A stretch of 64,000 nucleotides of DNA from an uncultured Gemmatimonadaceae bacterium (GCA_963790305.1 CAWBOC010000010.1:192001-256000); one strand, 5' to 3'; shown: positions 2,059 through 63,840, numbered from the stretch's first letter. Notes: generated by a model from the letters alone, not told the origin. Made by a program: numbers and translations.

Positions 2059-2097
2059 AAGGACCAGCTCTCCTAACGGGGGAGCTGGTCCTTTTTT
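2059..2097 (+). terminator. Intrinsic terminator between convergent genes
   Basis: AAGGACCAGCTCTCC-TAAC-GGGGGAGCTGGTCCTTTTTT: long stem followed by a T-run. Confidence 0.85.
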
Positions 2098-2507
2098 CAG
2101 GGCGTAGCGACCGCTCGAACGATCGCGCGCGCGGAGGAGCTCGACTCCACGGCGCCATGGGCATTGGCAAGCTCCCGCACCTCGGCCCGCAGCGGCTCCA
2201 GGCCGGCGGGCCGCCGGACGATCAGCACGTCCACGCTCTCCGATAACGGACCGACGACGACGACGGTCGCGGAGCTCGTGCCGTCCGCGACCCAGGCGAC
2301 ATCAAGCCCGGTTCCCGCCGACTCGACCTGGCTGATCGCGCCGATGAGCTCAAGCACAGCGCCGGCGTCGCTCCCGCCCAGTCCGATGAGCGCCACCCGC
2401 ACGGTCTCGGCGGTTTCGTTAGGCGCTGTCGGAGCATCGCCGCCGCAGGCCAGGCCGAATGTGACGAGGGCGAGAGCGACGTAGCGGTGCCCGCGAGGGC
2501 GCGTCAT
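2097..2507 (-). CDS. Small hypothetical lipoprotein (beta-rich)
   Basis: Lipobox-like GLAC after a hydrophobic stretch; 4-nt overlap with the upstream protease gene. Confidence 0.7.
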   Translation of the reverse strand: MTRPRGHRYVALALVTFGLACGGDAPTAPNETAETVRVALIGLGGSDAGAVLELIGAISQVESAGTGLDVAWVADGTSSATVVVVGPLSESVDVLIVRRPAGLEPLRAEVRELANAHGAVESSSSARAIVRAVATP

Positions 2508-4345
2508 GGCGAGCTGGAGGCGTCCGTCACGCTCGTCTCGAGCATTTGCCGGAAGCGCACGACATCGCCGACGTCGAGACGCCCATTCCGGTTGCCAACG
2601 AGATCGAGCGCCCGGCGCCGTATTTCATCGAGCGACGAAGGATCCGCGACGCCACGAAGCGCCTGCTGTGTCGTGAGCGACGGCATGGTCACCCGCAACT
2701 CGAGCTCGGCGACACTCTTGCTCGCCTTGGCGTCCCGAACCTCCACCGCGATGCGCGCGCTGATGAGATCCTCCGGCGCACCCTGTATCACGCCGCCGGC
2801 AGTCAGGGTCAGCCCGCGAGGGAGGGCATCCAGCGCGCGCCACTGGTACGGCGGGGAGCCGCCGCTGGCTTGAAGTGCATGAGCGAATGCCGTTTGCCCG
2901 AGGGAGGCGTTGACGGTCGTCGTCGCCGCCGCGATCACCGGTGCCGTGACGGTGAACGTCACGTCGAAGCTCACTCGGTCCCCAGCGATGGTGATTCCAT
3001 CAATGCGCACGCCGCTCGGACTCCCCTCGCTGGTGCGCAGCCAGGGCTTCGACGAATCCGAAAGCGCCACGACCAGTGACGAGCCGGGGAACGGATCGCC
3101 GACGTCGCCAACGTTCGTGCGCGCGGCGAGGTCATCCCGGCCGTCCGCCTGCACGACGCGCACGGCTGGGTGCGCCTCGTCGTCGTTCACGCCCCAGAAC
3201 CGAGATTCCAGCACCGCGTCATTCACATGCCATACGACGAGACCGATACCTGGTGCGGACGCGTCGGCTCCTACGGCGGCGCGATACTCGAGCAGCACGT
3301 GCTCGCGTCCCCCGTTGAGGTTGATGCGAACAATGTCACCTTCGCGCCCCACGGGGCTCAACTCGACGCGCGACGACGTCGACACGTGACGCACCGTCGC
3401 CCAGCCGAGGCGCTCGCGCGCCCAGGCGCCGAAATGCGGAGGTCGCGCGGGCGGCGCCGCCCAGATCCCCATCACATCCCATCCGCCCACGCCGAACGAG
3501 CTGCCATCGTAGTCGTAGAGATCCGGAAGCCCCAGCACGTGTCCGATCTCGTGAATCGGAATGTTGACGCGCGTCGGCATGATCTCATCGCCCTGACAAG
3601 CGACAGCAAATGCGCCGACGAAATCGTCGATCACGATCGGTGTTCCGTCGGCCCCCATCACGCTCGTCACGTACGGCTGCCCGTTCCACCCCGGAAGGAG
3701 GCTCAGCCGATATCCCGTTTCGCGGAAGCCGCGGAGGCTGTCTGGCCCGCAGCCGTATTCGGAACCGGGCTGGAGCAGCACCGCAATGTCGACCGCGCCG
3801 TCATCGTCGCCGGAGTTCGGGACGCCGTCCGCCCCATCGTTGTCATAGTGTCGCCAATCGACAATGCCTTCGGCGCGCTGGAGTAGATCGCGCGCGAACT
3901 CGCCGTAGCGCTGCCAGACTCCGGCCGCATCACCGTCGATGTACGATGCCCGCGTGCGCGGGAGTCGAATCCAGGGAGTCGTCGTTCCGGTGAACGTCAG
4001 CGCGCCTAACGATACCTCGCGATAGTACCGCGCCACCGAGTAGGGGCCGACGCCGGCGTGTGCCCCGAAATAGGCGCTGTCGTAGACGGCGCGGTCGTAC
4101 TTGGGGGTGACGTCGGCGAAGGTGCCGGCGATGACCGGCATGCCGAGGGTGCCGCGTAGCGGACGGCGGGCGGCGAGGCCTCGAACCGAGGTGTTCGAGG
4201 GTGAAAGTGGCAGGTCGCGACGGTCGTGGGCGACCACGCCTCGCCCCAGCTGGGCGTGGGCGGGGGCGGCCACGGAGGCAATGACGCACAGACTCCAGGC
4301 TATCGCCCGAAGACGAGCTAACGATGAGATCGGCGACCGGCTCAT
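2504..4345 (-). CDS. Secreted M6 family (immune inhibitor A-like) metalloprotease with Ig-like (He_PIG) domain and C-terminal Ca-binding/dockerin-like motif
   Basis: Signal peptide ending AHA; HEIGHVLGLPDLYD zinc motif; WDVMG Met-turn; DNDGADGVPNSGDDDG loop; ASGGSPPYQW..LPRGLTL Ig repeat; C-terminal DLVGNRNGRLDVGD. Confidence 0.88.
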   Translation of the reverse strand: MSRSPISSLARLRAIAWSLCVIASVAAPAHAQLGRGVVAHDRRDLPLSPSNTSVRGLAARRPLRGTLGMPVIAGTFADVTPKYDRAVYDSAYFGAHAGVGPYSVARYYREVSLGALTFTGTTTPWIRLPRTRASYIDGDAAGVWQRYGEFARDLLQRAEGIVDWRHYDNDGADGVPNSGDDDGAVDIAVLLQPGSEYGCGPDSLRGFRETGYRLSLLPGWNGQPYVTSVMGADGTPIVIDDFVGAFAVACQGDEIMPTRVNIPIHEIGHVLGLPDLYDYDGSSFGVGGWDVMGIWAAPPARPPHFGAWARERLGWATVRHVSTSSRVELSPVGREGDIVRINLNGGREHVLLEYRAAVGADASAPGIGLVVWHVNDAVLESRFWGVNDDEAHPAVRVVQADGRDDLAARTNVGDVGDPFPGSSLVVALSDSSKPWLRTSEGSPSGVRIDGITIAGDRVSFDVTFTVTAPVIAAATTTVNASLGQTAFAHALQASGGSPPYQWRALDALPRGLTLTAGGVIQGAPEDLISARIAVEVRDAKASKSVAELELRVTMPSLTTQQALRGVADPSSLDEIRRRALDLVGNRNGRLDVGDVVRFRQMLETSVTDASSSP

Positions 4346-4526
4346 AATCGAGGGGCACCCCGAGCACGTTCCAGACCCGGTTCGAGCCGGTCATCACCGC
4401 ATTCAAGTGATTGTCCTTTCTACACTTGCATGGGTGACAGAGCACGGCGGTTTGGAGGGACTGTTGCCTGGCCGCCACACAGTTGCGGGCTGTGTAGCGC
4501 CGTGCCGCCACGAGTGCGGGAGAGTC

Positions 4527-5024
4527 CTAGGTGCTGGGTAGGTCCCGGCGCAGGAGCAACAGACCCACGTCGTCGCGCACGTATTCGCTCACTCGCCCCT
4601 CCTCCCGGAAGCCGGTGCGCTGAGCCAGCGCGAGGCCGGAAGCCAGAGAGGGCTCCTCCGGAAGCTCGATGACCGCGAAGCGTGAGCCTCGCGCGTGAAG
4701 GTCGGCACACGCCGCCTCCATGAGCGCGGTCGCGATGCCGCGACGACGTGCGGTTGCGTCGACGGCGACGAAGTAGACGCGTCCCGCGCCGTGGGCTCCC
4801 GCGATCTCGCCGAACACGATGAATCCGACGATCGCCTGCCCCTCGTGCGCAACAATGCCGCGATACTCATCGCTCGCGGACATCAATGCCTCCTCGAGTG
4901 ACGCGAGCATCGCTTCACCGAAGGGCGCGCCGCCGAGCCCGGCATCGGCGAGCGCTCGAGCAGCCGTGGCATCCGGGGCGGCGAGAGGACGAAGCGTGAC
5001 TGACACTGGCGTGGCGGGAACCAT
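4527..5024 (-). CDS. GNAT family N-acetyltransferase
   Basis: VAVDATARRRGIATALM acetyl-CoA motif and a GF..EG C-terminal motif. Start placed at ATG 5024 inside the longer ORF. Confidence 0.85.
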   Translation of the reverse strand: MVPATPVSVTLRPLAAPDATAARALADAGLGGAPFGEAMLASLEEALMSASDEYRGIVAHEGQAIVGFIVFGEIAGAHGAGRVYFVAVDATARRRGIATALMEAACADLHARGSRFAVIELPEEPSLASGLALAQRTGFREEGRVSEYVRDDVGLLLLRRDLPST

Positions 5025-5219
5025 GGAACCTGGGAACAGCGTCGCGCAAGTGAGACACCGCGCGTCCGATTGCTTGGACACCGCGCGGTGCGACGCGTTC
5101 GCCGCGCGACGCGCATCGCGAGCAGCGCGAACAGGATACGCGTACGACTCGCTCGCCGCACGTGACGGTCCCATCCATGCCTTGGTTGGGAATAGACTTT
5201 TTCGCCCTCGGGAGGCTCC

Positions 5220-5834
5220 ATGATTCGACATCTCGTTCTTTCGCTGGCTGCCGCCGGTGCCCTGGTCGGGCGCAGCGCGTTCGCGCAAACGTCCCCCCGG
5301 ATCGAAGTCACGCCCTACGCCGGCTACATGGTGTTCGGCGATTTCGTGAAGGGACCGCTCGGCACCTCGATCTCCAACGCTGGCGGTGCGCTCCTCGGCG
5401 CCCAGCTCGGCGTCGCGATCACGCCTAACGTGGCGCTCGTCGGGAACGCGGCGCGCGCGAGCGGCGACATCAACATCGGCATTCCGTTCCTCGATGGGAT
5501 CAGCGTCGGGTCGAGCTCTGCCTGGATGTTCGATGGTGCGCTGCAGCTGTCGCTGCCGCTTCCCGAGCGTGCGATTGCCTTCACCCCGTTCGTGCAGCTG
5601 GGCGCGGGGGCGATGCATCACGAAGTGAAGATCGGTCTCTCCACCAATGCCACGAATTTCGTGGGCACCGTCGGTGCCGGGGCTGACTTCGGTCTCACGC
5701 GATCCATCGGGCTGCGGTTGATGGCGAAGGACTACATCGGCCGCTTCAATGTCCGGGAAGCGACGACGCTGGACTACGAGCCGAAAGTCGCGCACAACTT
5801 CGGGTTCAGCGCGGGGTTGAAGGTCGCGTTCTAG
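5220..5834 (+). CDS. Outer-membrane beta-barrel protein (OmpA/OmpW-like small barrel)
   Basis: Signal peptide (AFA-Q), alternating amphipathic strands, C-terminal Phe (GLKVAF); SD GGAGG upstream. Confidence 0.8.
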   Translation: MIRHLVLSLAAAGALVGRSAFAQTSPRIEVTPYAGYMVFGDFVKGPLGTSISNAGGALLGAQLGVAITPNVALVGNAARASGDINIGIPFLDGISVGSSSAWMFDGALQLSLPLPERAIAFTPFVQLGAGAMHHEVKIGLSTNATNFVGTVGAGADFGLTRSIGLRLMAKDYIGRFNVREATTLDYEPKVAHNFGFSAGLKVAF

Positions 5835-5840
5835 GACGGC

Positions 5841-5937
5841 TGAGGGAGCAGGGAGGAGAAGTGGGGAAATCGAGTGAAGTGCTTCCCAATGTGGTGCACT
5901 TCAATCAATTTCCCCACTCCTCGTTTCTCGTTCCTCA
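5841..5937. repeat. Intergenic palindrome with 7-nt periodic arms (GTGAGGA/TCCTCAC-like family)
   Basis: GAAGTGGGGAAATCGAGTGAAGTGC pairs with GCACTTCAATCAATTTCCCCACTCC; right arm reads TCCCCAC TCCTCGT TTCTCGT TCCTCAT. Confidence 0.7.
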
Positions 5938-8874: not shown

Positions 8875-8883
8875 CGGGAGCGC

Positions 8884-9780
8884 CTAACGGCGATGCTGGC
8901 TGACAAACTCCCAGATGGCGTCGGTGGCGTCGAGTGCCGCGCCCCGGCTGGTGAGCGGCCAGCCGTGGTCCCCGCCTCGGAGCGTGAGGAAGACGACGGG
9001 AGCGCGGCAACGACTCATCCAGCTATCGCGCAACGCCTTCCCGGCGGCAAGCGTGTCGCGCTGAGGCTGGATCACGGCACACTCGTTTGCGCGCGCCCAG
9101 AACGTGGCCCCCTCGGGCGCCGGGATCGGGCGGCTGCCGCGAGGCGAAAGAGCGACGGCGTCGTAGTGCACGACGTCATCCGCATCGCCGTGGATGATCA
9201 TCATCGGCACGGGAGCACGGGGCGGCTCGATGCGCATGACGCTGCCGTCACCGGAGCGCATGCCGATTGCCCCCGCGACGACGGCGGCAGCGGCGATGCG
9301 AGAGGAGAGATCGGCGGCAATCCGGTGCGCAAGGACGCCGCCGTTCGAGTGACCCGCGACATACACACGCCCGCGGTCCACTCGATACCGAGCCGAGAGT
9401 GTGTCAATGAGCGCACCAATGAAGCCGACGTCATCGATGGGCTCGGGCAATCCGAATCCGAGGGACCAACCGCGCGGCGTCCCCGTGCCGTCGGGTGCGA
9501 CGAGGAGGAACCCCTCGGCATCGGCCTTCGCGTCGAATCCTGACCAGTGGATCATCCGCTGGCCGCTGCCGCCGCGGCCGTGAAGGGCGATGACGAGCGG
9601 CAGCGTGCGCGTGGAGTCGGCCGCGGAAGGAACGCGGATGGTGTACGTGCGCTCGATGCCATCCCACGTCATATGACCGCGTTCGCTGCGTTGAGCTGCT
9701 AGCGCGGAGGCGGAGAGCCCGAGGCCAAGAAGGACGAAACGGCAGATGCCCGCCGAGGGCCGCAGAAACCGCAACGGCAT
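8884..9780 (-). CDS. Secreted alpha/beta hydrolase, PHB depolymerase/LpqC-like esterase
   Basis: ALHGRGG oxyanion region, GHSNGG nucleophile, HGDAD, GGDHGW. Confidence 0.85.
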   Translation of the reverse strand: MPLRFLRPSAGICRFVLLGLGLSASALAAQRSERGHMTWDGIERTYTIRVPSAADSTRTLPLVIALHGRGGSGQRMIHWSGFDAKADAEGFLLVAPDGTGTPRGWSLGFGLPEPIDDVGFIGALIDTLSARYRVDRGRVYVAGHSNGGVLAHRIAADLSSRIAAAAVVAGAIGMRSGDGSVMRIEPPRAPVPMMIIHGDADDVVHYDAVALSPRGSRPIPAPEGATFWARANECAVIQPQRDTLAAGKALRDSWMSRCRAPVVFLTLRGGDHGWPLTSRGAALDATDAIWEFVSQHRR

Positions 9781-15135: not shown

Positions 15136-15888
15136 ATGGATTTCGCCGAGCGTCTCCGCGCCTCCTTCGCCGATCTCGGGCAGCTGCTTCCCGCGCTGAT
15201 CGGCGCGCTCATCATCGTCTTCGCGGGATACCTGCTCGCGAAGCTGCTCGAGAAGGGGATCGATCGCACCCTGGCCAGAGTGGGACTGAACCGCTGGCTC
15301 GAGCGCGGCGGCGTCATGGACGCCATGGCGAAGACGGGCCGGCGCTTCACGCCATCGCAGGTATTCGCGAACATCGTGTTCTGGCTCGTCATGTTCGTGG
15401 TGCTGACGGTCGCCGCCAACGCGCTCGGCCTAACGGCGCTGGCGGAGGTGTTCAGCGAGCTGGTGAGCTATCTGCCGAGCGTGATCGCGGCAATCATCAT
15501 CATTCTCGTCGGGATCGTGCTGGGGGAGTTCGTCGACGGGTTGATCCTGGCCTCCGCGGGAAAGATCCACGGCGGTCCCACGCTGGCGCGGGTCGGGCAG
15601 GCGGGGGTCGTCATGCTGGCGGTGTTCATGGCTCTCCAGCAGCTGGGAATCGCCACGAACATCGTCACGACCGCGTTCGCGATCCTGTTCGGCGCCGTCG
15701 CGCTCGGTCTGGCGCTGGCCTTCGGTCTCGGGAACCGTGACCTGGCAGGGAGAATCACCCGCGAGTGGTACGAGCGCATGCGGGCCGAGCGGGAGGCAAT
15801 CGCTCGTGAGGTGGCGGAGCGTGACGTGCGGGACGACGTCGAGCGACGCCAACTGGAATCGGCGGGGAAGGACGGTCCACGCGAGTGA
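15136..15888 (+). CDS. TM-helix repeat membrane protein (mechanosensitive channel/CmpX-like)
   Basis: Repeated LP.(L/V)I.A..I...G segments and ALAFGLG motif; multiple TM helices. Confidence 0.8.
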   Translation: MDFAERLRASFADLGQLLPALIGALIIVFAGYLLAKLLEKGIDRTLARVGLNRWLERGGVMDAMAKTGRRFTPSQVFANIVFWLVMFVVLTVAANALGLTALAEVFSELVSYLPSVIAAIIIILVGIVLGEFVDGLILASAGKIHGGPTLARVGQAGVVMLAVFMALQQLGIATNIVTTAFAILFGAVALGLALAFGLGNRDLAGRITREWYERMRAEREAIAREVAERDVRDDVERRQLESAGKDGPRE

Positions 15889-16454: not shown

Positions 16455-18353
16455 ATGATGAAGCGCGTTTTCCTCGCTGCCCTCTTCACGGCGGCCCCCC
16501 TCGCCGCGCAGCAAGAAGACGACACGCTCTACGTCCGGAACAACTTCGTGAAGCGCGAGGCGCGCATCCCCATGCGCGATGGCGTCCACCTCTTCACGAC
16601 GATCTACGTTCCCAAGGACACCGCGCAGCGGCATCCGATCCTGTTGCGACGGACGCCCTATTCGGCCGGCCCGTACGGTGACACGAACTACGTGCAGCTC
16701 GGCGGCTTTCTGCTGGCAATGGCACAGCAGGGATACATCATCGCGTTCCAGGACGTGCGTGGCCGCTTCATGTCGGAGGGCGAATTCGTCGACGTGCGCC
16801 CGCAGGTGACGACCGCGCAGGGCGCGGCTCCGCGAGCGACCAACGGCGGCGCGGCACCGATCGACGAGAGCACGGACACCTGGGACACGATCGACTGGCT
16901 GGTGAAGAACGTCCCGGCAAACAACGGACGCGTCGCCATGCAGGGTGTGTCCTATCCCGGGTTCTACTCGGCGACCGGGGGGATCAATCACCATCCGGCG
17001 CTGCGGGTGATCTCGCCGCAGGCGCCGGTGGCCGACTGGTTCATCGGCGACGACTTTCACCACAACGGTGCCCTCTACCTGGCGCACACCTTCCACTTCT
17101 TCTCGGGGTTCGGGCAGCCGCGTCCCGCTCCGACCGCGGAAGGTCGGCGAGGAATGAACATCGGAACGCCCGACGGCTACCAATTCTTCTTGAACCTCGG
17201 GCCGCTGCCTAACGTCAAGGCGAGGTGGTACGGCGACAGCATCCGCTTCTGGAACGATGTCGTGGCGCATCCCACCTACGACGCCTTCTGGAAGGCGCGT
17301 AACCTGCTGCCGCATCTCCGGAACATGCCGCCGGCGGTCATGACCGTCGGCGGATGGTACGACGCGGAGGACCTGTACGGGCCGCTCAAGGTCTATCAGT
17401 CGATCGAGGAGAAGAATCCCGGCATCACGAACATGCTGGTGATGGGTCCGTGGTTTCATGGGCAATGGTCGGGCGGGCCAGGTGACGCGCTCGGCGCCGT
17501 GCGCTACCCGCCGACGGGACCGTATTTCCGGGACAGCATCGCGATTCCGTTCTTCAATCACTTCATGAAGGATGGGCCGGATCCGAAACTGCCCGAGGCG
17601 ATCGTGTTCGAAGCGGGCGCGAACCGGTGGCGGCGATTCGATGCCTGGCCGCCGCGCGGAGTGCGCCGGCGCTCGCTCCACCTTCGCGAGTCGGGAGGGT
17701 TGTCGTTCGAGGCGCCAACAGCGGTGCGTGCAGCTGCCGACGACTTCGTGAGCGACCCCGCGCATCCCGTGCCCTATGTCGGCTACGTCACGCCAGGGAT
17801 GAGCATCGAGCACATGGTGGATGACCAGCGCTTTGCGGCCACGCGAGCGGACGTGCTCGTGTACCAGACGCCGCCGCTCACGGAAGATGTGACGATCGCG
17901 GGTCCGATCACGGCGACGCTCTGGGTGTCCACGACAGGCACCGACGCCGACTGGGTCGTGAAGGTGATCGACGTCTACCCGGATAGCCTTCCCACGCTCG
18001 ATCCCGAGCTCTGGGCTTCGCAGAGGATCCGGTTAGGCGGCTATCAACAGCTCGTTCGGGGCGAGCTTTTTCGAGGACGATTCCGCAACTCGTTCGAGCG
18101 TCCCGAGGCGTTCGTCCCGGGTCGGGTCACGAAGGTCGAATACGAGCTCCCCGATGTCTTTCATACGTTCCAGCGCGGGCATCGCATCATGATCCAGGTG
18201 CAAAGCTCCTGGTTCCCGCTGGTCGATCGCAACCCGCAGACGTTCGTCGACATCTACCAGGCCAAGGAGAGCGATTTCAGAAAGGCGACGCACCGCGTGC
18301 ATCGCACTCGTGCGCAGGCGTCGCGAGTGACGGTCGGGGTTCTATCGCCGTAG
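16455..18353 (+). CDS. CocE/NonD family hydrolase (alpha-amino acid ester hydrolase-like)
   Basis: IPMRDGVHL, RTPY, QDVRGRFMSEG, GVSYPG nucleophile, GGWYDAED, GPWFHG. Confidence 0.93.
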   Translation: MMKRVFLAALFTAAPLAAQQEDDTLYVRNNFVKREARIPMRDGVHLFTTIYVPKDTAQRHPILLRRTPYSAGPYGDTNYVQLGGFLLAMAQQGYIIAFQDVRGRFMSEGEFVDVRPQVTTAQGAAPRATNGGAAPIDESTDTWDTIDWLVKNVPANNGRVAMQGVSYPGFYSATGGINHHPALRVISPQAPVADWFIGDDFHHNGALYLAHTFHFFSGFGQPRPAPTAEGRRGMNIGTPDGYQFFLNLGPLPNVKARWYGDSIRFWNDVVAHPTYDAFWKARNLLPHLRNMPPAVMTVGGWYDAEDLYGPLKVYQSIEEKNPGITNMLVMGPWFHGQWSGGPGDALGAVRYPPTGPYFRDSIAIPFFNHFMKDGPDPKLPEAIVFEAGANRWRRFDAWPPRGVRRRSLHLRESGGLSFEAPTAVRAAADDFVSDPAHPVPYVGYVTPGMSIEHMVDDQRFAATRADVLVYQTPPLTEDVTIAGPITATLWVSTTGTDADWVVKVIDVYPDSLPTLDPELWASQRIRLGGYQQLVRGELFRGRFRNSFERPEAFVPGRVTKVEYELPDVFHTFQRGHRIMIQVQSSWFPLVDRNPQTFVDIYQAKESDFRKATHRVHRTRAQASRVTVGVLSP

Positions 18354-29569: not shown

Positions 29570-29869
29570 CTTGTGCCAGGGTCTACCCACGAAGTTTCGA
29601 CGACGGGGGTGAGCCTTGATAACCCCCCGCCACGGAACCATTCCGCAGCGTCCGCAGGCACCTCACGCGCGATGCCGCGCGTCGCAGATCTTCACGATGC
29701 ACCGTTAGGCACGCCAGTTCGGGTACGTCGCACGTCGGTTCGTCAGCAGCATCCCTTGCCACTTCCAGTCCGCGATCGGCGTTGAACATGGCCGCGGAAG
29801 CGTGGAGCGGTAAGGTCTCACCTCCAAGTGTCGGTGAGCGTCCACTCCCCACCCTGTAGAGGCAGACGT

Positions 29870-45600: not shown

Positions 45601-46109
45601 GGGCGGCACGTATCGAGGACATCTTCCCGCGCGAGCAGCTCGAGAAGGCAACCGTTCTCGAGGCGCACCAGTTCGCGAGCGCCATCGCGCTCAACAAGGG
45701 CAACGGAGGATTCGACCTCCAGCCGCTGCCTGCCGAAGCGCAGTTCGCGCCCGTGTACGCCACGATGGCCGAGGATTTCGATGGCGATGGCCGCGTCGAC
45801 ATCCTGCTCGGCGGCAACTTCGACGGGGTGACGCCCCTGCTCGGGCGATACGACGCGAGCTATGGCCTGCTGCTTCGCGGGGACGGGACAGGCCGTTTCG
45901 CTTCGATGGATCTCGCCGAGAGCGGGTTGCTCATCGAGGGGCAGGTGCGCGACATGAAGCCGCTAAGACATGTGACGGGGCGCGTGATCGTGGTCGCGCG
46001 AAACGACGACCGCCTTCAGCTGCTGCGGACGCTCCGGGGTTCCGGCCTAACGCGGGTCAGTGCGCAGGCTTCAGCCGACGCTGGACGGCCGCGCTCGTCA
46101 GCTCCCTGA
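42666..46109 (+). CDS. VCBS/FG-GAP repeat lipoprotein with ASPIC/UnbV domain, copy 2 (frameshifts near 43350, 43625, 44550)
   Basis: Same motif series as copy 1; lipobox LAGC; TAATG coupling to GH97 (alternative start 42717). Confidence 0.88.
42668..42774. repeat. Inverted (AGGGTGCTC)n nonamer palindrome within the 5' end of the gene
   Basis: AGGGTGCTCAGGGTGCTCAGGGTGCTCGAGGTGCTCAGGG ... CCCTGAGCACCCTGAGCACCCT. Confidence 0.85.
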
Positions 46110-47740: not shown

Positions 47741-47879
47741 CAGGACAAGGCGTTCAGGACGCCTCCAGTCCGCGGAGAGGACCGAGTCCACCTGGTTGGC
47801 CTAACGATCGATCCTGGGTTCTCACGAACCTCCTTGGCCCCACGCAGCGGACAGCGGGCCGGTCCAAAGGAGGCTCGTC

Positions 47880-49288: not shown

Positions 49289-49407
49289 GGGCCAAGCCGT
49301 ACCGACTGTCTCGTTAGGCGGGTATGCACTGGCGCCCTCGCCCCCGCACGACCATCATTTGCCCAGTTACCACCCTTAGAAGAACGGCTGGAGCGGAGGC
49401 TCCCCCA

Positions 49408-52210: not shown

Positions 52211-53999
52211 ATGAGCGTGGGGCGAGCCGCTTTCGGGTGGCTGCAGAAGATCGGGAAGTCGCTCATGCTGCCGGTGTCGGTGCTGCCAGTGGCGGGCATT
52301 CTGCTCGGCGTCGGCAGTGCGAAGTTCGCGTGGCTGCCCGAGACGATGTCGAACGTCATGGCGCAGGCGGGCGGCGCCGTCTTCGGCAACCTGCCGCTGA
52401 TCTTCGCCATTGGCGTCGCGCTCGGCCTAACGGGTAACGATGGAGTGGCGGCGCTGGCGGCGGTGGTCGGCTTCGCGGTGATGGTGGCGACGATGGGTGT
52501 GATGGCGCCCCTCGTCGGCTACGAGCCGCGCCAGATCATGGGCATCCCGTCGATCGAGACGGGGGTGTTCGGCGGTATTCTCATCGGCGCGGTCGCGGCG
52601 ATCCTGTTCAACCGATTCTTCAAGGTACAATTACCACCGTATCTCGGATTCTTCTCCGGAAAGCGGTCGGTGCCGATTCTCACCGCGTTCGCGGCGGTGC
52701 TGGTGGGAATCGTCTTGAGCTTCATCTGGCCCCCGATCGGCCGGCAGATCGATGTGTTCTCGCACTGGGCGGCGACGAGCAGTCCGCAGATCGCGTTCGC
52801 GGTATACGGCGTCGTGGAGCGGTCGCTGATTCCATTCGGTCTGCACCACATCTGGAACGTCCCGTTCTTCTTCGAGGTCGGGCAGTACATCGAGCCGGGA
52901 ACGGGGAAGATCATCCGCGGCGAGATCTATCGATTCACGGCGGGTGACCCGACAGCGGGCAATCTCGCCGGCGGCTACCTGTTCAAGATGTGGGGACTGC
53001 CGGCGGCGGCGCTGGCGATCTGGCGAACGGCGCGCCCCGAGAATCGCAAGAAGGTCGGCGGTATCATGATATCCGCCGCCTTGACGTCTTTCCTCACGGG
53101 TATCACAGAGCCAATCGAGTTCGCGTTCCTGTTCGTTGCGCCGGTGCTGTACGGGATTCACGCGCTGTTGGCCGGCGCAGCCTACTACCTGTGCGTCGAG
53201 CTCGGCATTCGGCACAGCACGACGTTTTCGCACGGATTGATCGATTACATCGTGCTCTTCCCGAATTCGCAGCGTGGCTTGTGGTTCCTGTGGCTCGGTC
53301 CGCTGTGGGCGCTGATGTACTACGGCTTGTTCCGGACGATGATCGTGAAGATGAATCTCAAGACGCCCGGGAGAGAGTTGGAGGACGTCACGACGCCAGC
53401 GGTGGAGGGGCCTGCCGGCGCGGGTGGGGACGGGATGGCTCCGGGACTCGTGGCGGCGTTCGGTGGGGCGGGGAACATCAAGAATCTCGACGCGTGCATC
53501 ACGCGACTCCGCGTCGACTTGAACGACGTGTCGAAGGCGAGCCCGGCGGCGCTCAAGGCGTTAGGCGCATCCGGTGTCATGCAGGTAGGGAACGGTATGC
53601 AGGCGATCTTCGGCACGCGGTCGGAGAATCTCAAGACCGCAATGGAAGAGTACATGCGCGGCGCCGGTGCGACTGTCACTGCGCCGCCGGTCGTGGCGCC
53701 GGGGCCGCGCACAGTCTGTTGTCCGAGTCGAGCCTACCGCCGAGGATCGCGCGCGCGCGGCGACGATCGTCGAGGCGCTAGGGGGCTACGACAACATCGT
53801 GCAGGTCGAGCCGGTGGCGTTGACTCGGCTTCGAGTCGAGGTGAGAGACCCATCACGCGTCCGCAAGGCTGCGCTGGAGAACGCGACGGGCGGCGTGCTC
53901 TCGGCGTCGGACCGCGTGCTGCACGTCGTTGCTGGGCAAAGCGCCGAGCGGTATGCGGCGGCGATCGAAGCCGCTGGTGGTGTAGCCGCGGGGAGGTGA
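52211..53999 (+). CDS. ptsG: PTS glucose-family permease EIICB with a second degenerate EIIB (frameshift near 53715)
   Basis: [49 protein letters not shown]; the next frame gives [21 protein letters not shown]. Confidence 0.9.
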
Positions 54000-54933: not shown

Positions 54934-56388
54934 CTACTGCCCCCCCGTCGCCCGGGCCCCCTGAGCGATCATCTCGTCGAGGGCCGGGCGATCCAGCCAC
55001 CGGCCGCCAATCGCTACCCCTCGAATACGGGCGGTATTGGTGATGTCACTCAAAGGATTCCCGACCACGAGCACGAAGTCGGCTCTTTTGCCAGCCTCGA
55101 TGGTGCCCCATGCTGAGCTCGCGCCGAGGTATTCCGCGGGATTCCGTGTGGCCGTGACCAACGCCTCGTAGGGCGAGAGCCCCGCCTGCACCAGCGCGAC
55201 GAGCTCGCGATGCAGCCCGTAGCCGTACAAGTGAAACCACTCAGGCGTATCGGAGCCCGCGAGCAGCTTTCCACCAGAATCCTGAAGCGCCTTCACGACG
55301 TGGTTGCGAACGGCGACATACCTGGCCCGGCGCGGTGGCGTCTTGAGGCTGTCGTTGGCGGCGGCCCAGTACCGCGCGTGCGCGCGCAGATAGCCTTCGC
55401 GAAGCTGCGGCGGCCAGTGCTTGAAATCCTGGCGCGCTCTGATCGTATCGAGCGATTCACCAGTGCCGAACGCGGTGTTGAACACGTTCTGCGTTGGACC
55501 GACGTAGACGCCCGACCGCGCCACCACGCCCGCGAGCCGGTCGATCTTCCGCGAGTCGATGTAGTCGAGGCTCGGCCAGTTCCGCATGTTGAAGATGCGC
55601 CCTTGCGTGAGCGATGTCTTCATTGGCGCCGAGTCGGCGAGCGCGGCTTCCAGGAAGGAGTCCAGGTGCTCGAGCTGCTGCCGTGCCGCGGCGGCGCGCT
55701 CGACGCCGACATCGGGCTCGACGTGGCCCACCACCGCAATGTCCTGTTGCGCCGCTTCGCTGATAATGGACTCCCACACCGGGGGCGTAAGAAACAGCGT
55801 GAGCTTCACGAAGTCGTAGCCATCCCTTTTCGCGCGCCTAACGGCCTCGCGTGCTTCAGCATCCGTCGTCGTCACAATGGCATTCTCGGAGGCGCGACCG
55901 GTGAGTTGGGGACTCGCGACCCACAGCTGCGGGCCGATGACCGTCCCGGCACGGACCGCGTCGCGCAGCGCGAGCTGCTCCGGAGTTCCAATCATCAACC
56001 GCACGGCCGTCACGCCGTTTGCGACCATCACCCCCAGCTCGGCCGGCCCGGCCGAATCGGGGACCTCGTCGCCGTCGGAAAACAGGTGCGTGTGCATGTC
56101 GGCGAGGCCCGGCATCAGGTAACCGCCACCGCCGTCGACGACTCTGGCGCCCGGCGGAACTCGCAGGTCTCTTTGAGGACCGACGTACGTGATGCGACCG
56201 TCGCGGGCGAGCACCGCGGCGTCTCTCACCACCGCGTCGCCCGTCATCGGCACGACTGATACGTTCGTGATGGCGAGGTCGCCCGACGCCAACGCGCCGC
56301 GCGCGGCCAGCTGCTGCGCGGGAACGGCAGCGGTTTGCGGCTGGCACGAGACGAGGCCGGTGAATAGGGCGAGGAGAGGGAGACGCAT
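54934..56388 (-). CDS. Amidohydrolase family lipoprotein
   Basis: MPGLADMHTH, GYDFVK, LEH, AGSDTP, GTIEAGKRADFVLV.GNPL. Confidence 0.9.
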   Translation of the reverse strand: MRLPLLALFTGLVSCQPQTAAVPAQQLAARGALASGDLAITNVSVVPMTGDAVVRDAAVLARDGRITYVGPQRDLRVPPGARVVDGGGGYLMPGLADMHTHLFSDGDEVPDSAGPAELGVMVANGVTAVRLMIGTPEQLALRDAVRAGTVIGPQLWVASPQLTGRASENAIVTTTDAEAREAVRRAKRDGYDFVKLTLFLTPPVWESIISEAAQQDIAVVGHVEPDVGVERAAAARQQLEHLDSFLEAALADSAPMKTSLTQGRIFNMRNWPSLDYIDSRKIDRLAGVVARSGVYVGPTQNVFNTAFGTGESLDTIRARQDFKHWPPQLREGYLRAHARYWAAANDSLKTPPRRARYVAVRNHVVKALQDSGGKLLAGSDTPEWFHLYGYGLHRELVALVQAGLSPYEALVTATRNPAEYLGASSAWGTIEAGKRADFVLVVGNPLSDITNTARIRGVAIGGRWLDRPALDEMIAQGARATGGQ

Positions 56389-57044: not shown

Positions 57045-57050
57045 CCATGC

Positions 57051-57920
57051 CTAACGGCTGGGGCTGGTGAAGCTGAGCGGCAGCACGATTCGCGCATCGG
57101 AGCCGCCCAGTCGCCAGCCACGCGCCACTCGCACCAGGCAGGCCTCGGCCTCGGCGGCGCCCGCACCTGACCACGTGCGCTCGACAATGTGGGCCGACGT
57201 CACGCGTCCGCCCTCGACGGTGAGTCCCAGCCTGACGAGACCGGCCAGCGCCGAATTTCTCGCCAGCCCCTCCTGGTGATAGCAACGCTCGAGCTGCGGC
57301 ACATGGGCACGCGCGGCCTGGCCCACTTCGCTGGTGATTCCCGCCGCTGGCGCGCCGGCGACTGCCCGCACCTCGGGTGGCGCGATGACCACTGCGTTCC
57401 GGGCCACACCGGCACCCACGACGGTGCCGAGGCCCGCGCCGCTCGGGGACAGTCCGCCACCGCGGACCCTGCCAGGCGTCTGCGATCCGATCCCGGTGGC
57501 CAGACCAACCTTGCCGCCCGTGGGCTCACCCGCCGCTGACCCAGTCGGCGCGACATCCACGCCCCGAAGCAAACTGCCGGCGTCCACGAGCCCTGCACTC
57601 CCGGAGAATGCGTCGCGCATACTCCCGGCGCCCGGTGATCCAACAGGCGCTGATGCCCGAACGCCTCGACCGCCGTCGCTCGCTCGACTCCGGATGGGTG
57701 GTTGCGCCAACGGAGCGGTCAGCGGGTTCCAGGTGATGACGGGCGGCCCATGGTCAACCAGCGGGGGGAGGAGTGGCCGGGGCATCGAGTGCACGAGCAG
57801 CAGCCACGCCGTCGCGAGTAGCGAGGCGACGAGATACGAAACGAACAGCGGTCGATCTTCCTCGGACGCGAGCTCGAACCGCAACGTCGTATCGAAGCTG
57901 GAGCGCTCGGGACGGGACAT
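57051..57920 (-). CDS. Membrane-anchored TonB-like/AgmX-PglI C-terminal domain protein
   Basis: N-terminal TM helix, Gly/Pro-rich linker, C-terminal LERCY..L.RN..L.G.V.L...CL....GW. Confidence 0.7.
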   Translation of the reverse strand: MSRPERSSFDTTLRFELASEEDRPLFVSYLVASLLATAWLLLVHSMPRPLLPPLVDHGPPVITWNPLTAPLAQPPIRSRASDGGRGVRASAPVGSPGAGSMRDAFSGSAGLVDAGSLLRGVDVAPTGSAAGEPTGGKVGLATGIGSQTPGRVRGGGLSPSGAGLGTVVGAGVARNAVVIAPPEVRAVAGAPAAGITSEVGQAARAHVPQLERCYHQEGLARNSALAGLVRLGLTVEGGRVTSAHIVERTWSGAGAAEAEACLVRVARGWRLGGSDARIVLPLSFTSPSR

Positions 57921-58034: not shown

Positions 58035-58958
58035 ATGCGTTTCGCGACCCTGCTTCTGTCTTTCGCCGTCGCTACGGCGGCTGGCGCCCAATCCGTCGAG
58101 AACCAGATCCGAACTGAGGTCGACCGCTATGTAGCGGCGATCAACAGCGGAAACGCCGGCGGTGTGGCCGCCCTGTACGTCAACGAGCCGACGACTTCGA
58201 GTGTCGGCGACGGACAGATCAATCGGGGGTGGCAGCGCATCGCCGACTTTCTCGCCCAGGTCTACCAGCAGGCGGGCACGGTCCGGATGACGAGCGACTC
58301 TCTGCTCGTAACGCCGCTGGGTCGCGAGGCCGCGATCGCCGTCCTCCGGTATACGTGGACGTCGCGCCGAGCAGGCACGGAGCCCGTGACTGGCGCCATG
58401 ACGCTCGCGTACGTGAGAACACCGCACGGCTGGCGCGTCGCGCACGCTCACACGAGCGCGCTCCAGACTGCCGGCGTCGCGTTAGGGGCGCTTGCGGCGG
58501 CCAGAGACTCCGGTCCGGCGGGACCGCGTCGTCAGACGGTGTCCTGCACCGTCACCCGAATCACCAATGGAGATGGCATCGTCTGCAGCCGGATCGGGAG
58601 GGTCCGTCTCATCGGCATCGATACGCCGGAGATGAACCAGCGGCCGTTCGGAAAACAGGCCGCCGATGCGCTTGGTGCGATGATCCGCGTCGGCAGCGTC
58701 GTGCGCCTGGAGCCTGATGTCGAGGAACGAGACCCGTATCGTCGCGCCCTCGCGTATGTGTGGGTTGACCGAACAATGGTGAACTGGCGTATGGTTCGGG
58801 AAGGCTGGGCCGTCCTGTTGACCTACCCGCCTAACGTTCAGTACGTGGACGCGTTCGCCGACGCCGAGCGTCTCGCGCGCGAGGAGAAACGAGGGTTGTG
58901 GGCGACGGGCGGGTTTGATTGCACTCCAGCCGAGCATCGCCGCCAGCAGTGTGAGTGA
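58035..58958 (+). CDS. Secreted NTF2/SnoaL-like (DUF4440) domain fused to thermonuclease (SNase)
   Basis: Signal peptide; NTF2 ending GWRVAHAHTS; SNase VRLIGIDTPE, RDPYRRALAYV, VN..MVREGWA, AR..KRGLW. Confidence 0.82.
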   Translation: MRFATLLLSFAVATAAGAQSVENQIRTEVDRYVAAINSGNAGGVAALYVNEPTTSSVGDGQINRGWQRIADFLAQVYQQAGTVRMTSDSLLVTPLGREAAIAVLRYTWTSRRAGTEPVTGAMTLAYVRTPHGWRVAHAHTSALQTAGVALGALAAARDSGPAGPRRQTVSCTVTRITNGDGIVCSRIGRVRLIGIDTPEMNQRPFGKQAADALGAMIRVGSVVRLEPDVEERDPYRRALAYVWVDRTMVNWRMVREGWAVLLTYPPNVQYVDAFADAERLAREEKRGLWATGGFDCTPAEHRRQQCE

Positions 58959-59032: not shown

Positions 59033-60448
59033 ATGCGCGCATTTCGCCAAATCCTGGTCGTGCTGGGCCTGGCGGTCTCTTTCGCTGGCGCCCTTTCACA
59101 TGCTGACGCGCAGCAGCGCCCCTCGCGTGCCGCGCTGCAGCGAACCGTCGATTCTCTCGCCGCCAACGCGCTCCGCGAAGGGCCGGTGGGAGGGATATCG
59201 ATCGCCGTCGTTCGTGGGAGAGACACCGTCGTCATGAAGGGCTACGGCCTCGCCGACGTCGAGAACGACGTCCCGGCGACGGCCCAGACGGTCTATCGCA
59301 TTGGGTCGATCACCAAGCAGTTCACCGCGGCCGCGGTGCTGCAGCTCGCGGAGCAGGGAAAGGTATGGGTCGACGACACGATCGGCGGACGCGTGCCCAA
59401 CCTGCCCGCTTCGTGGCGGAAGGCGACGATTCGTCAGCTCCTGAACCATACGTCCGGCATTCCGAGCTACACGAGCGCCGGGCCACGCTGGCAGACCCGG
59501 ATGCGCATTGATCTGCCGCACGATTCGCTCATCGGCATCGTCGCCAACGACTCAATGGATTTCCCGCTCGGCACACAATGGCGCTACAACAACACCGGCT
59601 ACTACCTGCTCGGCATGATGATCGAGCGCCTCACCGATCGCTCGTACGCCGAGGTCGTGCGTGACCAGCTGGTCAAGCCGTTAGGCCTGCAGGCGACGAT
59701 GTACTGCAGCACGCGGCCGGTCATCAAGCGACGGGCGCAGGGCTATCAGGTCGATCAGGATGAGAAGCTCGTCAACGCCGACCCCCTGAGCATGAATCAG
59801 CCCTTCGCGGCCGGCTCGCTGTGCTCGACCGTGGGCGATCTCATCGCGTGGCAGCGCGCGCTTGCGGCGGGCCGGGTCGTCAAGCCGGAATCGTATACGG
59901 CGATGATCACCCCGCAGGGAGCGGCGGCCGGCCGGGGCTACGGGTACGGGCTGTCGAAAGACACGCTCGCCGGCCGCACGCGCATTCAGCACGGCGGGGG
60001 GATCAACGGGTTCAACTCGATGCTGCAGTACTTTCCCGCTGACACACTCTCGATCGCCGTTCTCGTCAACACCAACGGGCCGTGGGCTGACCGCATCGCG
60101 AACAACATCGCTCGTGCCGCACTCGGGGTGCCGCTCGTGGCATCCCCGGCGCGGCTCGCCGACCTTCCCACGACCGCGGAAGAACGCGCGCGGTTCGCTG
60201 GGACCTATCGGCTCCTGTTGCCCAACGGAAGCACCCTCAACCTTCGTGTCTTCGAGCGTGATGGAAGGCTGTTCGCACAGGGGGACGGTCCAGGCCAAGG
60301 CGAAATTTCGCTGCGATATCAGGGGAACAGCACGTTCGGCGCGTCGTTCGACCCCTCGATGCGGTTGACGTTCGCGGCGGGCTCGCCCACTCCCAAGGTC
60401 ACGCTGCTCCAGGGCGGCGCGACGATCGACGGCCCTCGGGTTCCCTAG
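59033..60448 (+). CDS. Serine hydrolase, beta-lactamase class C/AmpH-like
   Basis: SxxK (GSITK), LLNHTSG, YNNTGY, HGGGING. Confidence 0.92.
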   Translation: MRAFRQILVVLGLAVSFAGALSHADAQQRPSRAALQRTVDSLAANALREGPVGGISIAVVRGRDTVVMKGYGLADVENDVPATAQTVYRIGSITKQFTAAAVLQLAEQGKVWVDDTIGGRVPNLPASWRKATIRQLLNHTSGIPSYTSAGPRWQTRMRIDLPHDSLIGIVANDSMDFPLGTQWRYNNTGYYLLGMMIERLTDRSYAEVVRDQLVKPLGLQATMYCSTRPVIKRRAQGYQVDQDEKLVNADPLSMNQPFAAGSLCSTVGDLIAWQRALAAGRVVKPESYTAMITPQGAAAGRGYGYGLSKDTLAGRTRIQHGGGINGFNSMLQYFPADTLSIAVLVNTNGPWADRIANNIARAALGVPLVASPARLADLPTTAEERARFAGTYRLLLPNGSTLNLRVFERDGRLFAQGDGPGQGEISLRYQGNSTFGASFDPSMRLTFAAGSPTPKVTLLQGGATIDGPRVP

Positions 60449-62830: not shown

Positions 62831-62834
62831 TTTG

Positions 62835-63030
62835 GCTGTGGGAGAAGGAAGCAGCCCCGTGGACGTAGTCCTCGTGGTCTGCGCGTCGCCCTCCCTACTG
62901 GTCTCCAGGGTTCGACTCCCTCCTCGTTCCGCCATGGCGGGCCAGCGCATTCGCGCACTGGAATGAACGCCCTGCAGGCTCGCGCCTCCGCGGTCGTTCC
63001 GGGGTTCGCCGTGGCGGAACGCTTTCCAGC
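62835..63030 (+). ncRNA. Candidate tRNA-like structured RNA (or tRNA-Sec 3' remnant at 62907-62934)
   Basis: T-arm AGGG-TTCGACT-CCCT followed by CCTCGTTCCGCCA; later D-arm-like GCG-CACTGGAATGAA-CGC; closing stem 62853-62865 with 62995-63006. Confidence 0.45.
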
Positions 63031-63042
63031 TTCGACACCACC

Positions 63043-63840
63043 ATGGTTCCTGAAACGCTCTTCGGCATCCTGCTCGCCCTCGTGGCGCTCCTCACGCTTC
63101 GCGCCACTGTGCGCAGCGTAACGATTTTCGAGTTTGAGCGTGGACTGAAGTACTCGCGCGGCAAGTTCCGCGCGGTGCTCGGGCCGGGACAGTACTGGTA
63201 CATGCCGCGCGTCACCTCGATTCGCGCGATCGACATGCGCACGAGTGTCGCGGCCTTGTCGGGACAGGAGGTGCTCAGTGCGGACGGTGTCGCGCTCAAG
63301 GTGAGCGTCGCCGCGAAGTACCACGTCGTGGATCCGGCGAAGGCGGTGAATGCCGTGGACAACTATGCGACCGCCCTCCATACCGAGCTGCAGCTCGCGC
63401 TGCGCGCCGTTATTTCCGGCAGCGAGGTGGACGCCCTGCTCCGTCAACGGGCGACGTTAGGCGCGAGGCTCACCGAGCTCGCGGCCGAGCCCATTCGCGC
63501 CCTTGGGCTGGAGCTGGTGGCGGCCGAGATCCGCGATCTCACGCTGCCGGGCGAGCTGAAGAAGATCTTCTCGCAGGTCGTGCGGGCGCGCCAGGAAGGG
63601 CTGGCCGCGCTCGAGAAGGCTCGCGGCGAGACCGCCGCGCTTCGCAACCTCGCCAACGCCGCTCAGATGATCGAGCGCAATCCGCACCTCATGCAGCTGC
63701 GACTCCTTCAGGTGCTGGGGCAGCAGTCCGGCAACACCGTTGTGCTGGGGGTCCCGGCCTCGAGCGGGCCGATTCCCGTGCGCAGCGTTGACACGCCGCC
63801 TCAGATTCCCCCGCAGGGGATAGACGCGAGCGAGAGTTAG
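63043..63840 (+). CDS. SPFH/band-7 (slipin/stomatin-like) protein
   Basis: IFEFERGL, LGPG, QEVLSADGV.LKV, ARQEG.A.LEKARGETAALRNLANAA, LMQLRLLQ. Confidence 0.92.
   Translation: MVPETLFGILLALVALLTLRATVRSVTIFEFERGLKYSRGKFRAVLGPGQYWYMPRVTSIRAIDMRTSVAALSGQEVLSADGVALKVSVAAKYHVVDPAKAVNAVDNYATALHTELQLALRAVISGSEVDALLRQRATLGARLTELAAEPIRALGLELVAAEIRDLTLPGELKKIFSQVVRARQEGLAALEKARGETAALRNLANAAQMIERNPHLMQLRLLQVLGQQSGNTVVLGVPASSGPIPVRSVDTPPQIPPQGIDASES

Follow-up and report, generated by a model that had tools for sequence, protein, structure and literature searches.

A dispersed, over-represented octamer in Gemmatimonadaceae genomes: a candidate DNA uptake or recombination word with the spelling of the integron attC boxes

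Introduction

The window analyzed here is a 64,000-nucleotide stretch (C10:192001-256000) of assembly G000, a metagenome-assembled genome (MAG) of a soil bacterium of the Gemmatimonadaceae. Among its open reading frames (ORFs), which carry domain labels from Pfam matches, are gyrA and two neighboring genes of a phosphotransferase system (PTS), the first for an 846-aa EIIA-HPr-EI fusion protein and the second for a 616-aa EIIC/EIIB permease. Scattered through these and other genes and the spacers between them are copies of the octamer GCCTAACG, the subject of this study. A preliminary description of the window, made from its sequence, had proposed that the octamer is a genome-wide signal under selection and had known of no account of it for this lineage; we likewise found none in the literature (subscription journals were outside our coverage).

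Results

All 21 exact copies of GCCTAACG listed in the preliminary description, 12 on the plus and nine on the minus strand, lie where it had placed them. In 100 dinucleotide-preserving shuffles of the window the word occurred 0.96 times on average and at most four times. Its core, CCTAAC, is present 32 times against 6.4 expected, a number made up of the 21 full copies and 11 core-only sites; about 11 of the latter had been estimated and ten named, all of which are present, and the eleventh is at 38431. The enrichment continues elsewhere in the genome and in relatives, as had been anticipated. The assembly (4.31 Mb in 13 contigs, 66% GC, 94% complete) holds 855 copies, 436 on the plus and 419 on the minus strand, and every contig carries the word at 1.3-3.0 copies per 10 kb. 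An order-2 Markov model predicts 39.9 copies, an observed-to-expected ratio (O/E) of 21, and by z-score GCCTAACG is the most over-used 8-mer of the genome.

Could this abundance be an artefact of composition or codon choice? The preliminary description had taken a ratio near 1 under higher-order Markov models to speak against a signal, and the order-5 and order-6 ratios are indeed 1.14 and 0.97. We judge these values to be an artefact of nested words, because the expectation is drawn from 6-mers and 7-mers that the same signal inflates (CCTAAC 1547 copies, GCCTAAC 1105, CCTAACG 1229). The codon-aware shuffle suggested alongside it bears the signal out: when codons were permuted synonymously within each of 4086 crude gene calls (87% coding), the genes were expected to hold 44.3 +/- 7.2 copies (30 shuffles, largest 64) and hold 696, a ratio of 16, which rules out a codon or Markov artefact. 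Relatives that lack the trait provide a model-free baseline, with about 20 copies in each genome. Other hyper-abundant words of the genome are 10-mers, AATGCGGAAT/ATTCCGCATT (254 copies), the AGGAGTCAGG/TCAGGAGTCA family (about 250) and TAGAGGCGCT/AGGCGCTAGA (165-178); these are probably dispersed repeat families unrelated to GCCTAACG.

The word consists of the core CCTAAC with G preferred at both flanks, and it is non-palindromic, its reverse complement being CGTTAGGC. Positions 1 and 8 are loose; ACCTAACG occurs 194 times (O/E 9.6) and GCCTAACA 115 times (O/E 9.3). Positions 2-7 are strict with one exception, GCATAACG, whose 253 copies (O/E 6.9) may represent a second tolerated spelling or a separate signal. 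The remaining changes at core positions have ratios of at most 1.5, save GCCTGACG (O/E 2.1), and some one-change core variants are rare, with 10 copies of GTCTAACG, 12 of GCTTAACG and three of GCCTAAAG (O/E 0.2-0.5, on an expectation that the word itself inflates). Alignment of the 855 copies revealed no flank consensus outside the eight letters, only a 3-base coding periodicity. GCCTAACG is therefore not a repeat element.

Nor does the word follow a peptide. By our own crude gene calls about 88% of copies touch a called gene, and genome-wide they are read in four open frames: xCG-TTA-GGC (332 copies), G-CCT-AAC-G (153), xGC-CTA-ACG (146) and C-GTT-AGG-C (61). A further 63 copies overlap or supply stop codons, 40 as CGT-TAG and 23 as GCC-TAA. 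The four frames, the stop codons, the copies in spacers and the lack of a flank consensus together rule out both a repeat element and a peptide motif. The commonest frame uses TTA, the rarest leucine codon, and 332 of the 1129 TTA codons in the genome (29%) lie inside GCCTAACG. Seen from the protein side, the word spells about 10% of [SPTA]LG sites, 10% of [GRSC]LT sites and 17% of PN[VADEG] sites. Thus, GCCTAACG is a DNA-level signal and not a peptide, codon or repeat-element effect. The proposal of a genome-wide signal under selection stands to the extent that the word is genome-wide, resides at the DNA level and exceeds neutral expectation, as judged from the codon shuffle, the absence of a flank consensus and the conservation between sister species described below.

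The window is a fair sample in this respect, since the locations of its 21 copies resemble the genome-wide mix (Table 1). The rare codons attributed to the word are there: TTA-Leu frames occur in five window genes, and CTA-Leu and CCT-AAC frames occur as well. The claim of a TTA leucine holds for the EIIC/EIIB gene, which contains two copies, one of them in this frame at 53559; in gyrA the full octamer is absent and only the core is found, at 18724. CGT-TAG stop codons had been assigned to three sites, and under our gene calls they are supplied at 8884-8886 and 57051-57053. Three of the window copies fall where the gene caller and the plain ORF list disagree.

Table 1. Copies of GCCTAACG and associated features in the window (positions from the first letter of the window; G004, G005 and G008 are relatives in which the site was aligned)
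Position	Strand	Context	Reading at the site	Aligned relatives
2417..2424	-	ORF 2097-2507(-), without Pfam match; sense	GCG-CCT-AAC-GAA (A-P-N-E)	
4004..4011	+	ORF 2504-4345(-), Peptidase_M6-like; antisense	TCG-TTA-GGC (S-L-G, rare TTA)	
5423..5430	+	ORF 5220-5834(+), outer membrane protein beta-barrel; frame uncertain, ORF 4527-5795(-) overlaps	ACG-CCT-AAC-GTG	
8882..8889	+	ORF 8884-9780(-), hydrolase	gives stop codon, CGT-TAG	
15428..15435	+	ORF 15136-15888(+), mechanosensitive channel	GGC-CTA-ACG (G-L-T, rare CTA)	
17207..17214	+	ORF 16422-18353(+), X-Pro dipeptidyl-peptidase S15	CTG-CCT-AAC-GTC	
22891..22898	-	ORF 22790-23902(-)	TCG-CCT-AAC-GGG	
23467..23474	-	ORF 22790-23902(-), second copy	GCG-CCT-AAC-GGG	
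24132..24139	+	ORF 23958-25076(-), ABC permease; antisense	ACG-TTA-GGC (T-L-G)	
29703..29710	-	ORF 29705-31492(-) if real (without Pfam match, uncalled by gene caller); else intergenic	GCC-TAA stop if ORF real	
36737..36744	-	ORF 36375-37937(+), ASPIC/UnbV, FG-GAP; uncalled by gene caller	ACC-GTT-AGG-CAG (V-R, rare AGG)	
46045..46052	+	ORF 44325-46109(+), FG-GAP repeat protein	GGC-CTA-ACG	kept in G008; GCCAAACG in G004
47799..47806	+	intergenic, 74 bp upstream of ORF 47880-49142 (ankyrin repeats); about 60 bp past promoter-like match 47712-47740		kept in G008 and G004
49312..49319	-	intergenic, 24 bp past the palindromic repeat 49155-49288		CGTTAGGT in three sister species
52425..52432	+	PTS EIIC/EIIB gene 52211-54061(+)	GGC-CTA-ACG	identical in 4/4 aligned sister species
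53559..53566	-	PTS EIIC/EIIB gene 52211-54061(+)	GCG-TTA-GGC (A-L-G)	identical in 4/4 aligned sister species
55836..55843	+	ORF 54934-56430(-), amidohydrolase; antisense	GCC-GTT-AGG-CGC	GCCTGACG in G008; GCCTAACA in G005
57049..57056	+	ORF 57051-57932(-)	gives stop codon, CGT-TAG	kept in G008
58829..58836	+	ORF 57972-58958(+), SNase/SnoaL	CCG-CCT-AAC-GTT	kept in G008
59679..59686	-	ORF 58955-60448(+), beta-lactamase family	CCG-TTA-GGC (P-L-G)	kept in G008
63455..63462	-	ORF 63043-63840(+), Band 7/SPFH	ACG-TTA-GGC (T-L-G)	CGTTAGGT in G005
2072, 18032, 18724 (gyrA), 21300, 33296, 38431, 39931, 43136, 58481, 60463, 60958		core-only CCTAAC (n=11)		
18500-21019		gyrA (Pfam)		
49155-49288		130-bp near-perfect palindromic element in spacer		
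49584-54061		PTS gene pair		

One further feature of the window is the palindromic element beside the copy at 49312. Matches of about 110-130 bp to it occur on both strands at dozens of places in three sister genomes (G001, G004, G008), and it looks like a mobile repeat of the repetitive extragenic palindrome (REP) or miniature inverted-repeat transposable element (MITE) type.

Copies are kept between species. Of the 23 window sites that could be aligned with five sister species, whose per-base identity over the aligned stretches is 76-83%, 14 are the same in every letter, where 5.2 would be expected from the genome-wide fraction of identical 8-mers and 6.6 from a local control matched for codon phase. 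The binomial tail against the latter is 0.0014, a value that overstates the significance since the species are related and that rests on a small sample; the sites are nonetheless kept above local background. Most of the sites lost in sisters keep the core, for example as CGTTAGGT or GCCTAACA, and one site is kept in all five sister species where G000 has CCCTAACG. The conserved GyrA peptide R-L-T is written CGC-CTA-ACG in five word-rich lineages from two separate groups of the GyrA tree; the other 64 of the 69 aligned rows, that of the window included, use different spellings, for the most part ones with CTC or CTG.

How are the copies arranged along the chromosome? The strand split of 12:9 in the window had been taken to argue against a polar signal of the Chi or FtsK-orienting polar sequence (KOPS) kind. 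That argument is weak in itself, but its conclusion holds, since strand use shows no shift along the contigs, not even where the cumulative GC skew turns, near 400 kb on C5 (its minimum) and near 180 kb on C6 (its maximum). The orientation of neighbors is random (++ 214, -- 198, +- 214, -+ 216), and strand symmetry is likewise reported for the DNA uptake sequence (DUS) and the uptake signal sequence (USS) in PMC1939737. Close pairs are avoided: 11 of 842 gaps are shorter than 300 bp against about 50 expected from an exponential distribution, and one of 842 (0.1%) is shorter than 100 bp against 2.0% expected. Over the whole of G000 the coefficient of variation (CV) of the gaps is 1.0. On a 98.8-kb contig of the richest genome (G016:C1), with 123 copies on mixed strands at about 1.2 per kb, gaps below 100 bp make up 3.3% against 11.8% expected, and the CV is 0.81. 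The avoidance of close pairs fits a process for which one word per fragment suffices and speaks against a drive acting on each site alone.

Density also depends on the kind of gene. It climbs with GC content at third codon positions, from 0.97 copies per 10 kb in the lowest octile of genes to 2.2-2.7 in the top three, and a cassette-like array of small ORFs beside the integron integrase of G000 holds one copy in about 15 kb. Low density in atypical genes and in the cassette array fits a build-up of words with residence time, and uptake sequences are reported to accumulate after transfer (PMC2817400). The second-largest stretch without a copy, C13:206818-245792, has 63% GC and looks like a variable sugar/exopolysaccharide region, with broken genes.

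Among relatives, MAGs of 70-100% completeness, the word behaves as an on/off trait, with hundreds to thousands of copies or about 20. In a set of 41, all nine genomes of the window's own genus hold 382-1006 copies, six other genera of its family 173-6360 (the highest number in G016), three genomes of a second family 177-561, and the remaining 23 genomes 5-65. Across the phylum, in 301 genomes, word-rich genomes occur only in the window's family, where nine of 70 have at least 450 copies (up to 4469), and in genus g72 of a second family (f2), with 181-1061 copies in five genomes; none of the 103 genomes in families f4-f12 is word-rich. The trait thus appears in two families in the larger sample and in a third family in the set of 41. 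It can differ within one genus: in g44, two genomes (G240 and G296) hold 3896 and 4141 copies and a third (G292) holds 66. Around the 73 gyrA loci whose products are most closely related to this GyrA, one of them 98% identical, 11 have 1.7-13 copies per 10 kb, four have 0.4-0.9 and 58 have none. In a GyrA tree of 69 rows (four short matches of the 73 were dropped), the 11 rich rows fall into at least five separate groups interleaved with poor rows. These tallies include the unpublished genomes G015 (both sets) and G085, G124 and G203 (set of 301), all word-poor, and no conclusion depends on them. The TA-containing word GCGTAAAG, with six copies in locus L058, was considered as a dialect and rejected, as it reaches at most 275 copies among the 301 genomes and is never hyper-abundant.

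The word has a spelling known from another system, an identity that the preliminary description overlooked. Two boxes define the attC sites of integrons, the inverse core RYYYAAC and the core GTTRRRY (PMC3053210). GCCTAAC fits the former and GTTAGGC the latter, so that this 7-letter spelling is a perfect instance of both attC boxes; in this order the word is identical with the inverse core of integron attC sites. In the word-poor relative L085, the attC-like sites beside an integrase open with the exact octamer and close with either the 7-letter core or a version of it that differs by one letter. Most copies in word-poor genomes stand in one-strand arrays with a spacing of about 550 bp, and those on G027:C80 (with an adjoining integrase fragment) and G025:C26 sit beside integron integrase genes. 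Such arrays in sister-family word-poor genomes, of up to 36 copies in a row (G027:C95:188-23656, G025:C3:996-7711, G027:C80 and G027:C43), are probably large integron cassette arrays. A reading of the one-strand clusters as polarity was rejected in favor of cassette arrays, given the integrase genes adjoining them on G027:C80 and G025:C26 and the attC-like sites in L085.

Is the trait tied to an integron? G000 encodes an integron integrase above the curated cut-off (C9:694984-695919). The array of small ORFs lies behind it in the same orientation, the two together spanning C9:694984-711400, and a strict-pattern search downstream of the integrase found only one weak attC-like hairpin. Integrases above cut-off (TIGR02249) are present in 28 of the 41 relatives regardless of word density. 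They occur in 16 word-poor genomes and are not found above cut-off in the word-rich G012, G022 and G005; the richest genome has the integrase as frameshifted or broken pieces only. In g44 the two rich genomes and the poor one all encode an integrase above cut-off. Genome-wide, moreover, the copies are solitary and mostly inside conserved genes, without the paired boxes that flank an imperfect palindrome of 57-141 bp.

What might read the word? G000 encodes uptake hardware in the form of ComEC, DprA, a PilQ-like secretin that scores under the curated cut-off, and helix-hairpin-helix (HhH) proteins similar to ComEA, one of which is truncated where its contig stops. The PilQ-like matches are two, C3:186339-187694 and C11:41993-43348, of the same length and near-equal score and close to contig ends; either the gene is duplicated or the assembly may carry the ends of these contigs redundantly. 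In the 94%-complete genome there is no match to Vsr (PF03852), to C5 methylases (PF00145) or to N6/N4 methylases (PF01555), which weakens a reading of the word as a methylation site, and none to the PDDEXK_1 nuclease of the RecB/AddAB type (PF12705). RecC (PF04257) is found in one of the 41 relatives and in none of the nine genus genomes, and the order seems to lack end processing of the RecBCD/AddAB type. VirB4 is found in only one of the 41. The only DNA methylase detected in G000 is a 1021-aa Type IIG-like protein with an Eco57I/MmeI-type domain (C7:233025-236084), adjoined by a gene for a 739-aa SNF2/DrmD-like helicase (L126:5022-8087 and 8151-10370). Of the 41 genomes, 39 have this N6 methylase, whether they are rich or poor in the word, and its identity between them follows relatedness; restriction systems are not usually conserved in this way, which suggests that the enzyme has a housekeeping function. 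Across 32 of its orthologues, no alignment column is common to the rich lineages of both families and absent from the poor ones. The integron integrase, ComEC, the PilQ-like secretin, ComEA (TIGR00426), ComP_DUS, the Type IIG-like methylase, the ComEA-like protein with two HhH motifs, VirB4 and RecC were all considered as determinants of the trait and rejected, as none follows its presence and absence.

Discussion

What is the function of GCCTAACG? The word is extremely enriched, uses both strands equally, is written in any frame in spite of codon bias, is conserved at its sites, avoids close pairs, is restricted to certain lineages and is less dense in compositionally atypical genes; these features are found combined in USS, DUS and the octamer HIP1 (GCGATCGC) of cyanobacteria. 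We therefore rank first the reading that GCCTAACG is a self word of this kind, tied to DNA uptake or recombination, and give it a probability of roughly 0.4. The function of HIP1 was itself long obscure and is now linked to transformation (PMC13756078, bioRxiv 10.1101/2024.09.10.611283, PMC4390886). We infer a reader that acts in DNA uptake or recombination. In this model, a lineage-specific word would be favored by a sequence-specific reader and would spread by point substitutions wherever the proteins tolerate them. Fragments that bear the word would be preferentially taken up or recombined by cells of the same lineage, as for DUS and USS and as is now proposed for HIP1; homologous replacement would then drive the word into the genome, with one copy per fragment being enough.

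Each of the known systems resembles GCCTAACG in part. The closest parallels are with the USS of the Pasteurellaceae, which also lies mostly within genes, in frames that the protein tolerates, is built by point substitutions, is rarer in recently acquired genes and is spaced more evenly than chance (PMC1939737, PMC2817400); here too there is no strand polarity, and the R-L-T codons of GyrA are written synonymously in five lineages. USS is reported with 1,471 copies, 65% of them in ORFs, in frames that follow preferred codons (PMC2817400), whereas the commonest frame of GCCTAACG uses the rarest one, TTA. GCCTAACG differs further in being eight letters long without AT-rich flanking segments, in showing no non-coding excess, and in belonging to another phylum, in which it switches on and off among sister genera rather than being family-wide. 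The DUS of the Neisseriaceae, read by the minor pilin ComP, is likewise a hyper-abundant non-palindromic word on both strands, with a density similar to that on G016:C1, and G000 encodes a type IV pilus-type secretin, ComEC and DprA. However, while about 88% of GCCTAACG copies touch a called gene, 34.5% of DUS copies are reported in ORFs of N. meningitidis (PMC2817400), and in the absence of ComP, of an intergenic excess and of dialects GCCTAACG is not a member of the DUS family. HIP1 is over-represented 15- to 300-fold and low in some lineages (PMC5861425, PMC13756078), and the sites of both octamers are conserved between genomes above background. Unlike HIP1, GCCTAACG is no palindrome, the cognate orphan C5 or N6/N4 methylases were not found in G000, and a VirB4-type secretion system is present in a single one of the 41 genomes.

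Several observations weigh against a self word for uptake. No gene tested tracks the trait among relatives: all 41 genomes have ComEC, 40 have the PilQ-like secretin and 20 the ComEA-like protein with two HhH motifs, and in each case both word-rich and word-poor genomes are among them. ComP_DUS (PF16732) is matched in none of the nine genus genomes and not in G016, with weak pilin-like matches in 14 of 41 genomes, word-rich and word-poor alike. At a threshold of 1e-5 none of the nine genus genomes yielded canonical ComEA (TIGR00426); weak ComEA-like matches exist. Unlike DUS, the word forms no inverted terminator pairs in G000, and no other hyper-abundant 8-mer that could be a dialect is present in 22-kb samples of word-poor genomes (40 loci of at least 14 kb). 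Unlike both DUS and USS, it shows no non-coding excess, the 100 intergenic copies being 11.7% of the total in 12.6% of the genome by crude gene calls. We found no report of natural transformation in the phylum, within the literature coverage given above. Uptake does not account for the identity with the integron attC inverse core, nor does it predict the density of 0.8 per 10 kb, against a mean of 2.0, over C6:140-340 kb beside the GC-skew maximum. The notion that stretches free of the word are islands is only partly true; the C13 stretch is atypical, but the largest, 54 kb at C6:288265-342699, consists of housekeeping genes (those for RNase E/G, RecQ, an RpoD-type sigma factor, methylmalonyl-CoA mutase, AspRS, PanBC, Trp, LexA and PurBC). 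In five sister species the 20 kb orthologous to it contain two to three copies, and at two sites that sisters spell in full G000 has ACCTAACG and CCCTAACG, in which CCTAACG is kept and the first base changed.

The low zone on C6 brings to mind the binding sites of SlmA and Noc, which avoid the terminus region. GCCTAACG could be the binding site of an abundant intracellular protein, acting in nucleoid organization, segregation or in a manner like nucleoid occlusion and kept by selection for spaced sites, and a density that falls over 200 kb of housekeeping genes beside the skew maximum speaks for this explanation. Conservation of sites above background, avoidance of close pairs, the more even spacing on G016:C1 and the equal density of coding and non-coding DNA agree with it as well, and for HIP1 a role in the nucleoid was put forward by Xu et al. 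2018 (PMC5861425). We nevertheless consider it unlikely. The low zone is off-center from the skew peak and is seen in one genome only, its orthologous 20 kb in the sisters being populated; the gaps over the whole of G000 have a CV of 1.0; no candidate protein was identified; and a housekeeping role fits poorly with sister lineages that do without the word, even within g44. That on/off distribution is what one would expect of an enzyme gained and lost, and the equal density in all compartments and the scarcity of one-change core variants (on their inflated expectation) likewise suit a functionless by-product of biased mutation or of a repair like very-short-patch (VSP) repair that turns near-matches into the word. 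In contrast to Dcm/Vsr VSP repair, neither Vsr nor a C5 methylase, nor indeed an N6/N4 methylase, has a match in G000, and the Type IIG-like methylase is present in word-rich and word-poor genomes alike, with no position in its alignment that sets the two apart. A site-by-site process would not be expected to avoid close pairs or to keep orthologous sites above background; the same argument was used for HIP1, whose conservation within and between ORFs is reported to favor selection over biased repair (Xu et al. 2018, PMC5861425). A by-product is, in our view, quite improbable.

The spelling of the word raises the different question of whether it is read by the integron system or a relative, with isolated R-box copies that act as, or stem from, secondary recombination sites of an integron integrase or tyrosine recombinase. 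The fit to both attC boxes (PMC3053210), the octamer at the start of actual attC-like sites within the order, the one-strand arrays of word-poor genomes, two of them beside integrase genes, and the integrase of G000 itself all connect word and integron. The link fails at the level of the trait, since the integrase does not track it among the 41 relatives or within g44, and at the level of the copies, which are solitary, without partner box or palindrome, and arise as synonymous substitutions in conserved genes, with no attC-like flanks, inverted-pair excess or insertion scars. We know of no integrase activity that creates such copies, and this explanation appears no less improbable than a mutational by-product. 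A signal of the Chi type, which would restrain a helicase-nuclease at the ends of DNA and mark self DNA, is largely refuted and very improbable. An 8-letter non-palindromic word at about one per 5 kb, rarer in atypical genes, does recall Chi, whose density in E. coli is similar. The copies, however, show no co-orientation with replication at the skew turning points, and the expected readers were not found, RecC in the genus and PDDEXK_1 in G000. Chi also overrides codon bias far less strongly than GCCTAACG does.

The preferred reading, a self word for uptake or recombination, could be joined to the attC spelling in one further proposal. The Gemmatimonadales might possess a new reading system for which the R-box word of integrons serves as a self tag along the whole chromosome, and in the boldest form uptake or recombination would be tuned to the word borne by every integron cassette of the order; we regard this as rather unlikely, but its consequences deserve mention. 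The attC sites are recombined as single strands, the form of incoming DNA. If the proposal were true, competent cells would preferentially import both the DNA of their own species and free gene cassettes, natural transformation would be linked mechanistically with the capture of integron cassettes, and the word would represent a third independent origin of uptake-type words outside the Proteobacteria.

Finally, hyper-abundant words are known from few lineages, the Neisseriaceae, the Pasteurellaceae and the cyanobacteria, and each has taught something about how self DNA is discriminated from foreign DNA. GCCTAACG adds a case from a different, mostly uncultured phylum of soil bacteria. The word overrides codon bias at a measurable cost, with 29% of the TTA codons of the genome owed to it. 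Close relatives clearly either have the trait or lack it, even when they belong to the same genus (about 4000 copies against 66), so that phylogenetic profiling should be able to find the gene for its reader. Should the attC-core spelling be more than chance, it would connect genome-wide tags with the chief system by which bacteria capture genes; and a reader that turned out to be something other than an uptake receptor or a recombinase would make GCCTAACG a new kind of chromosome-wide signal.

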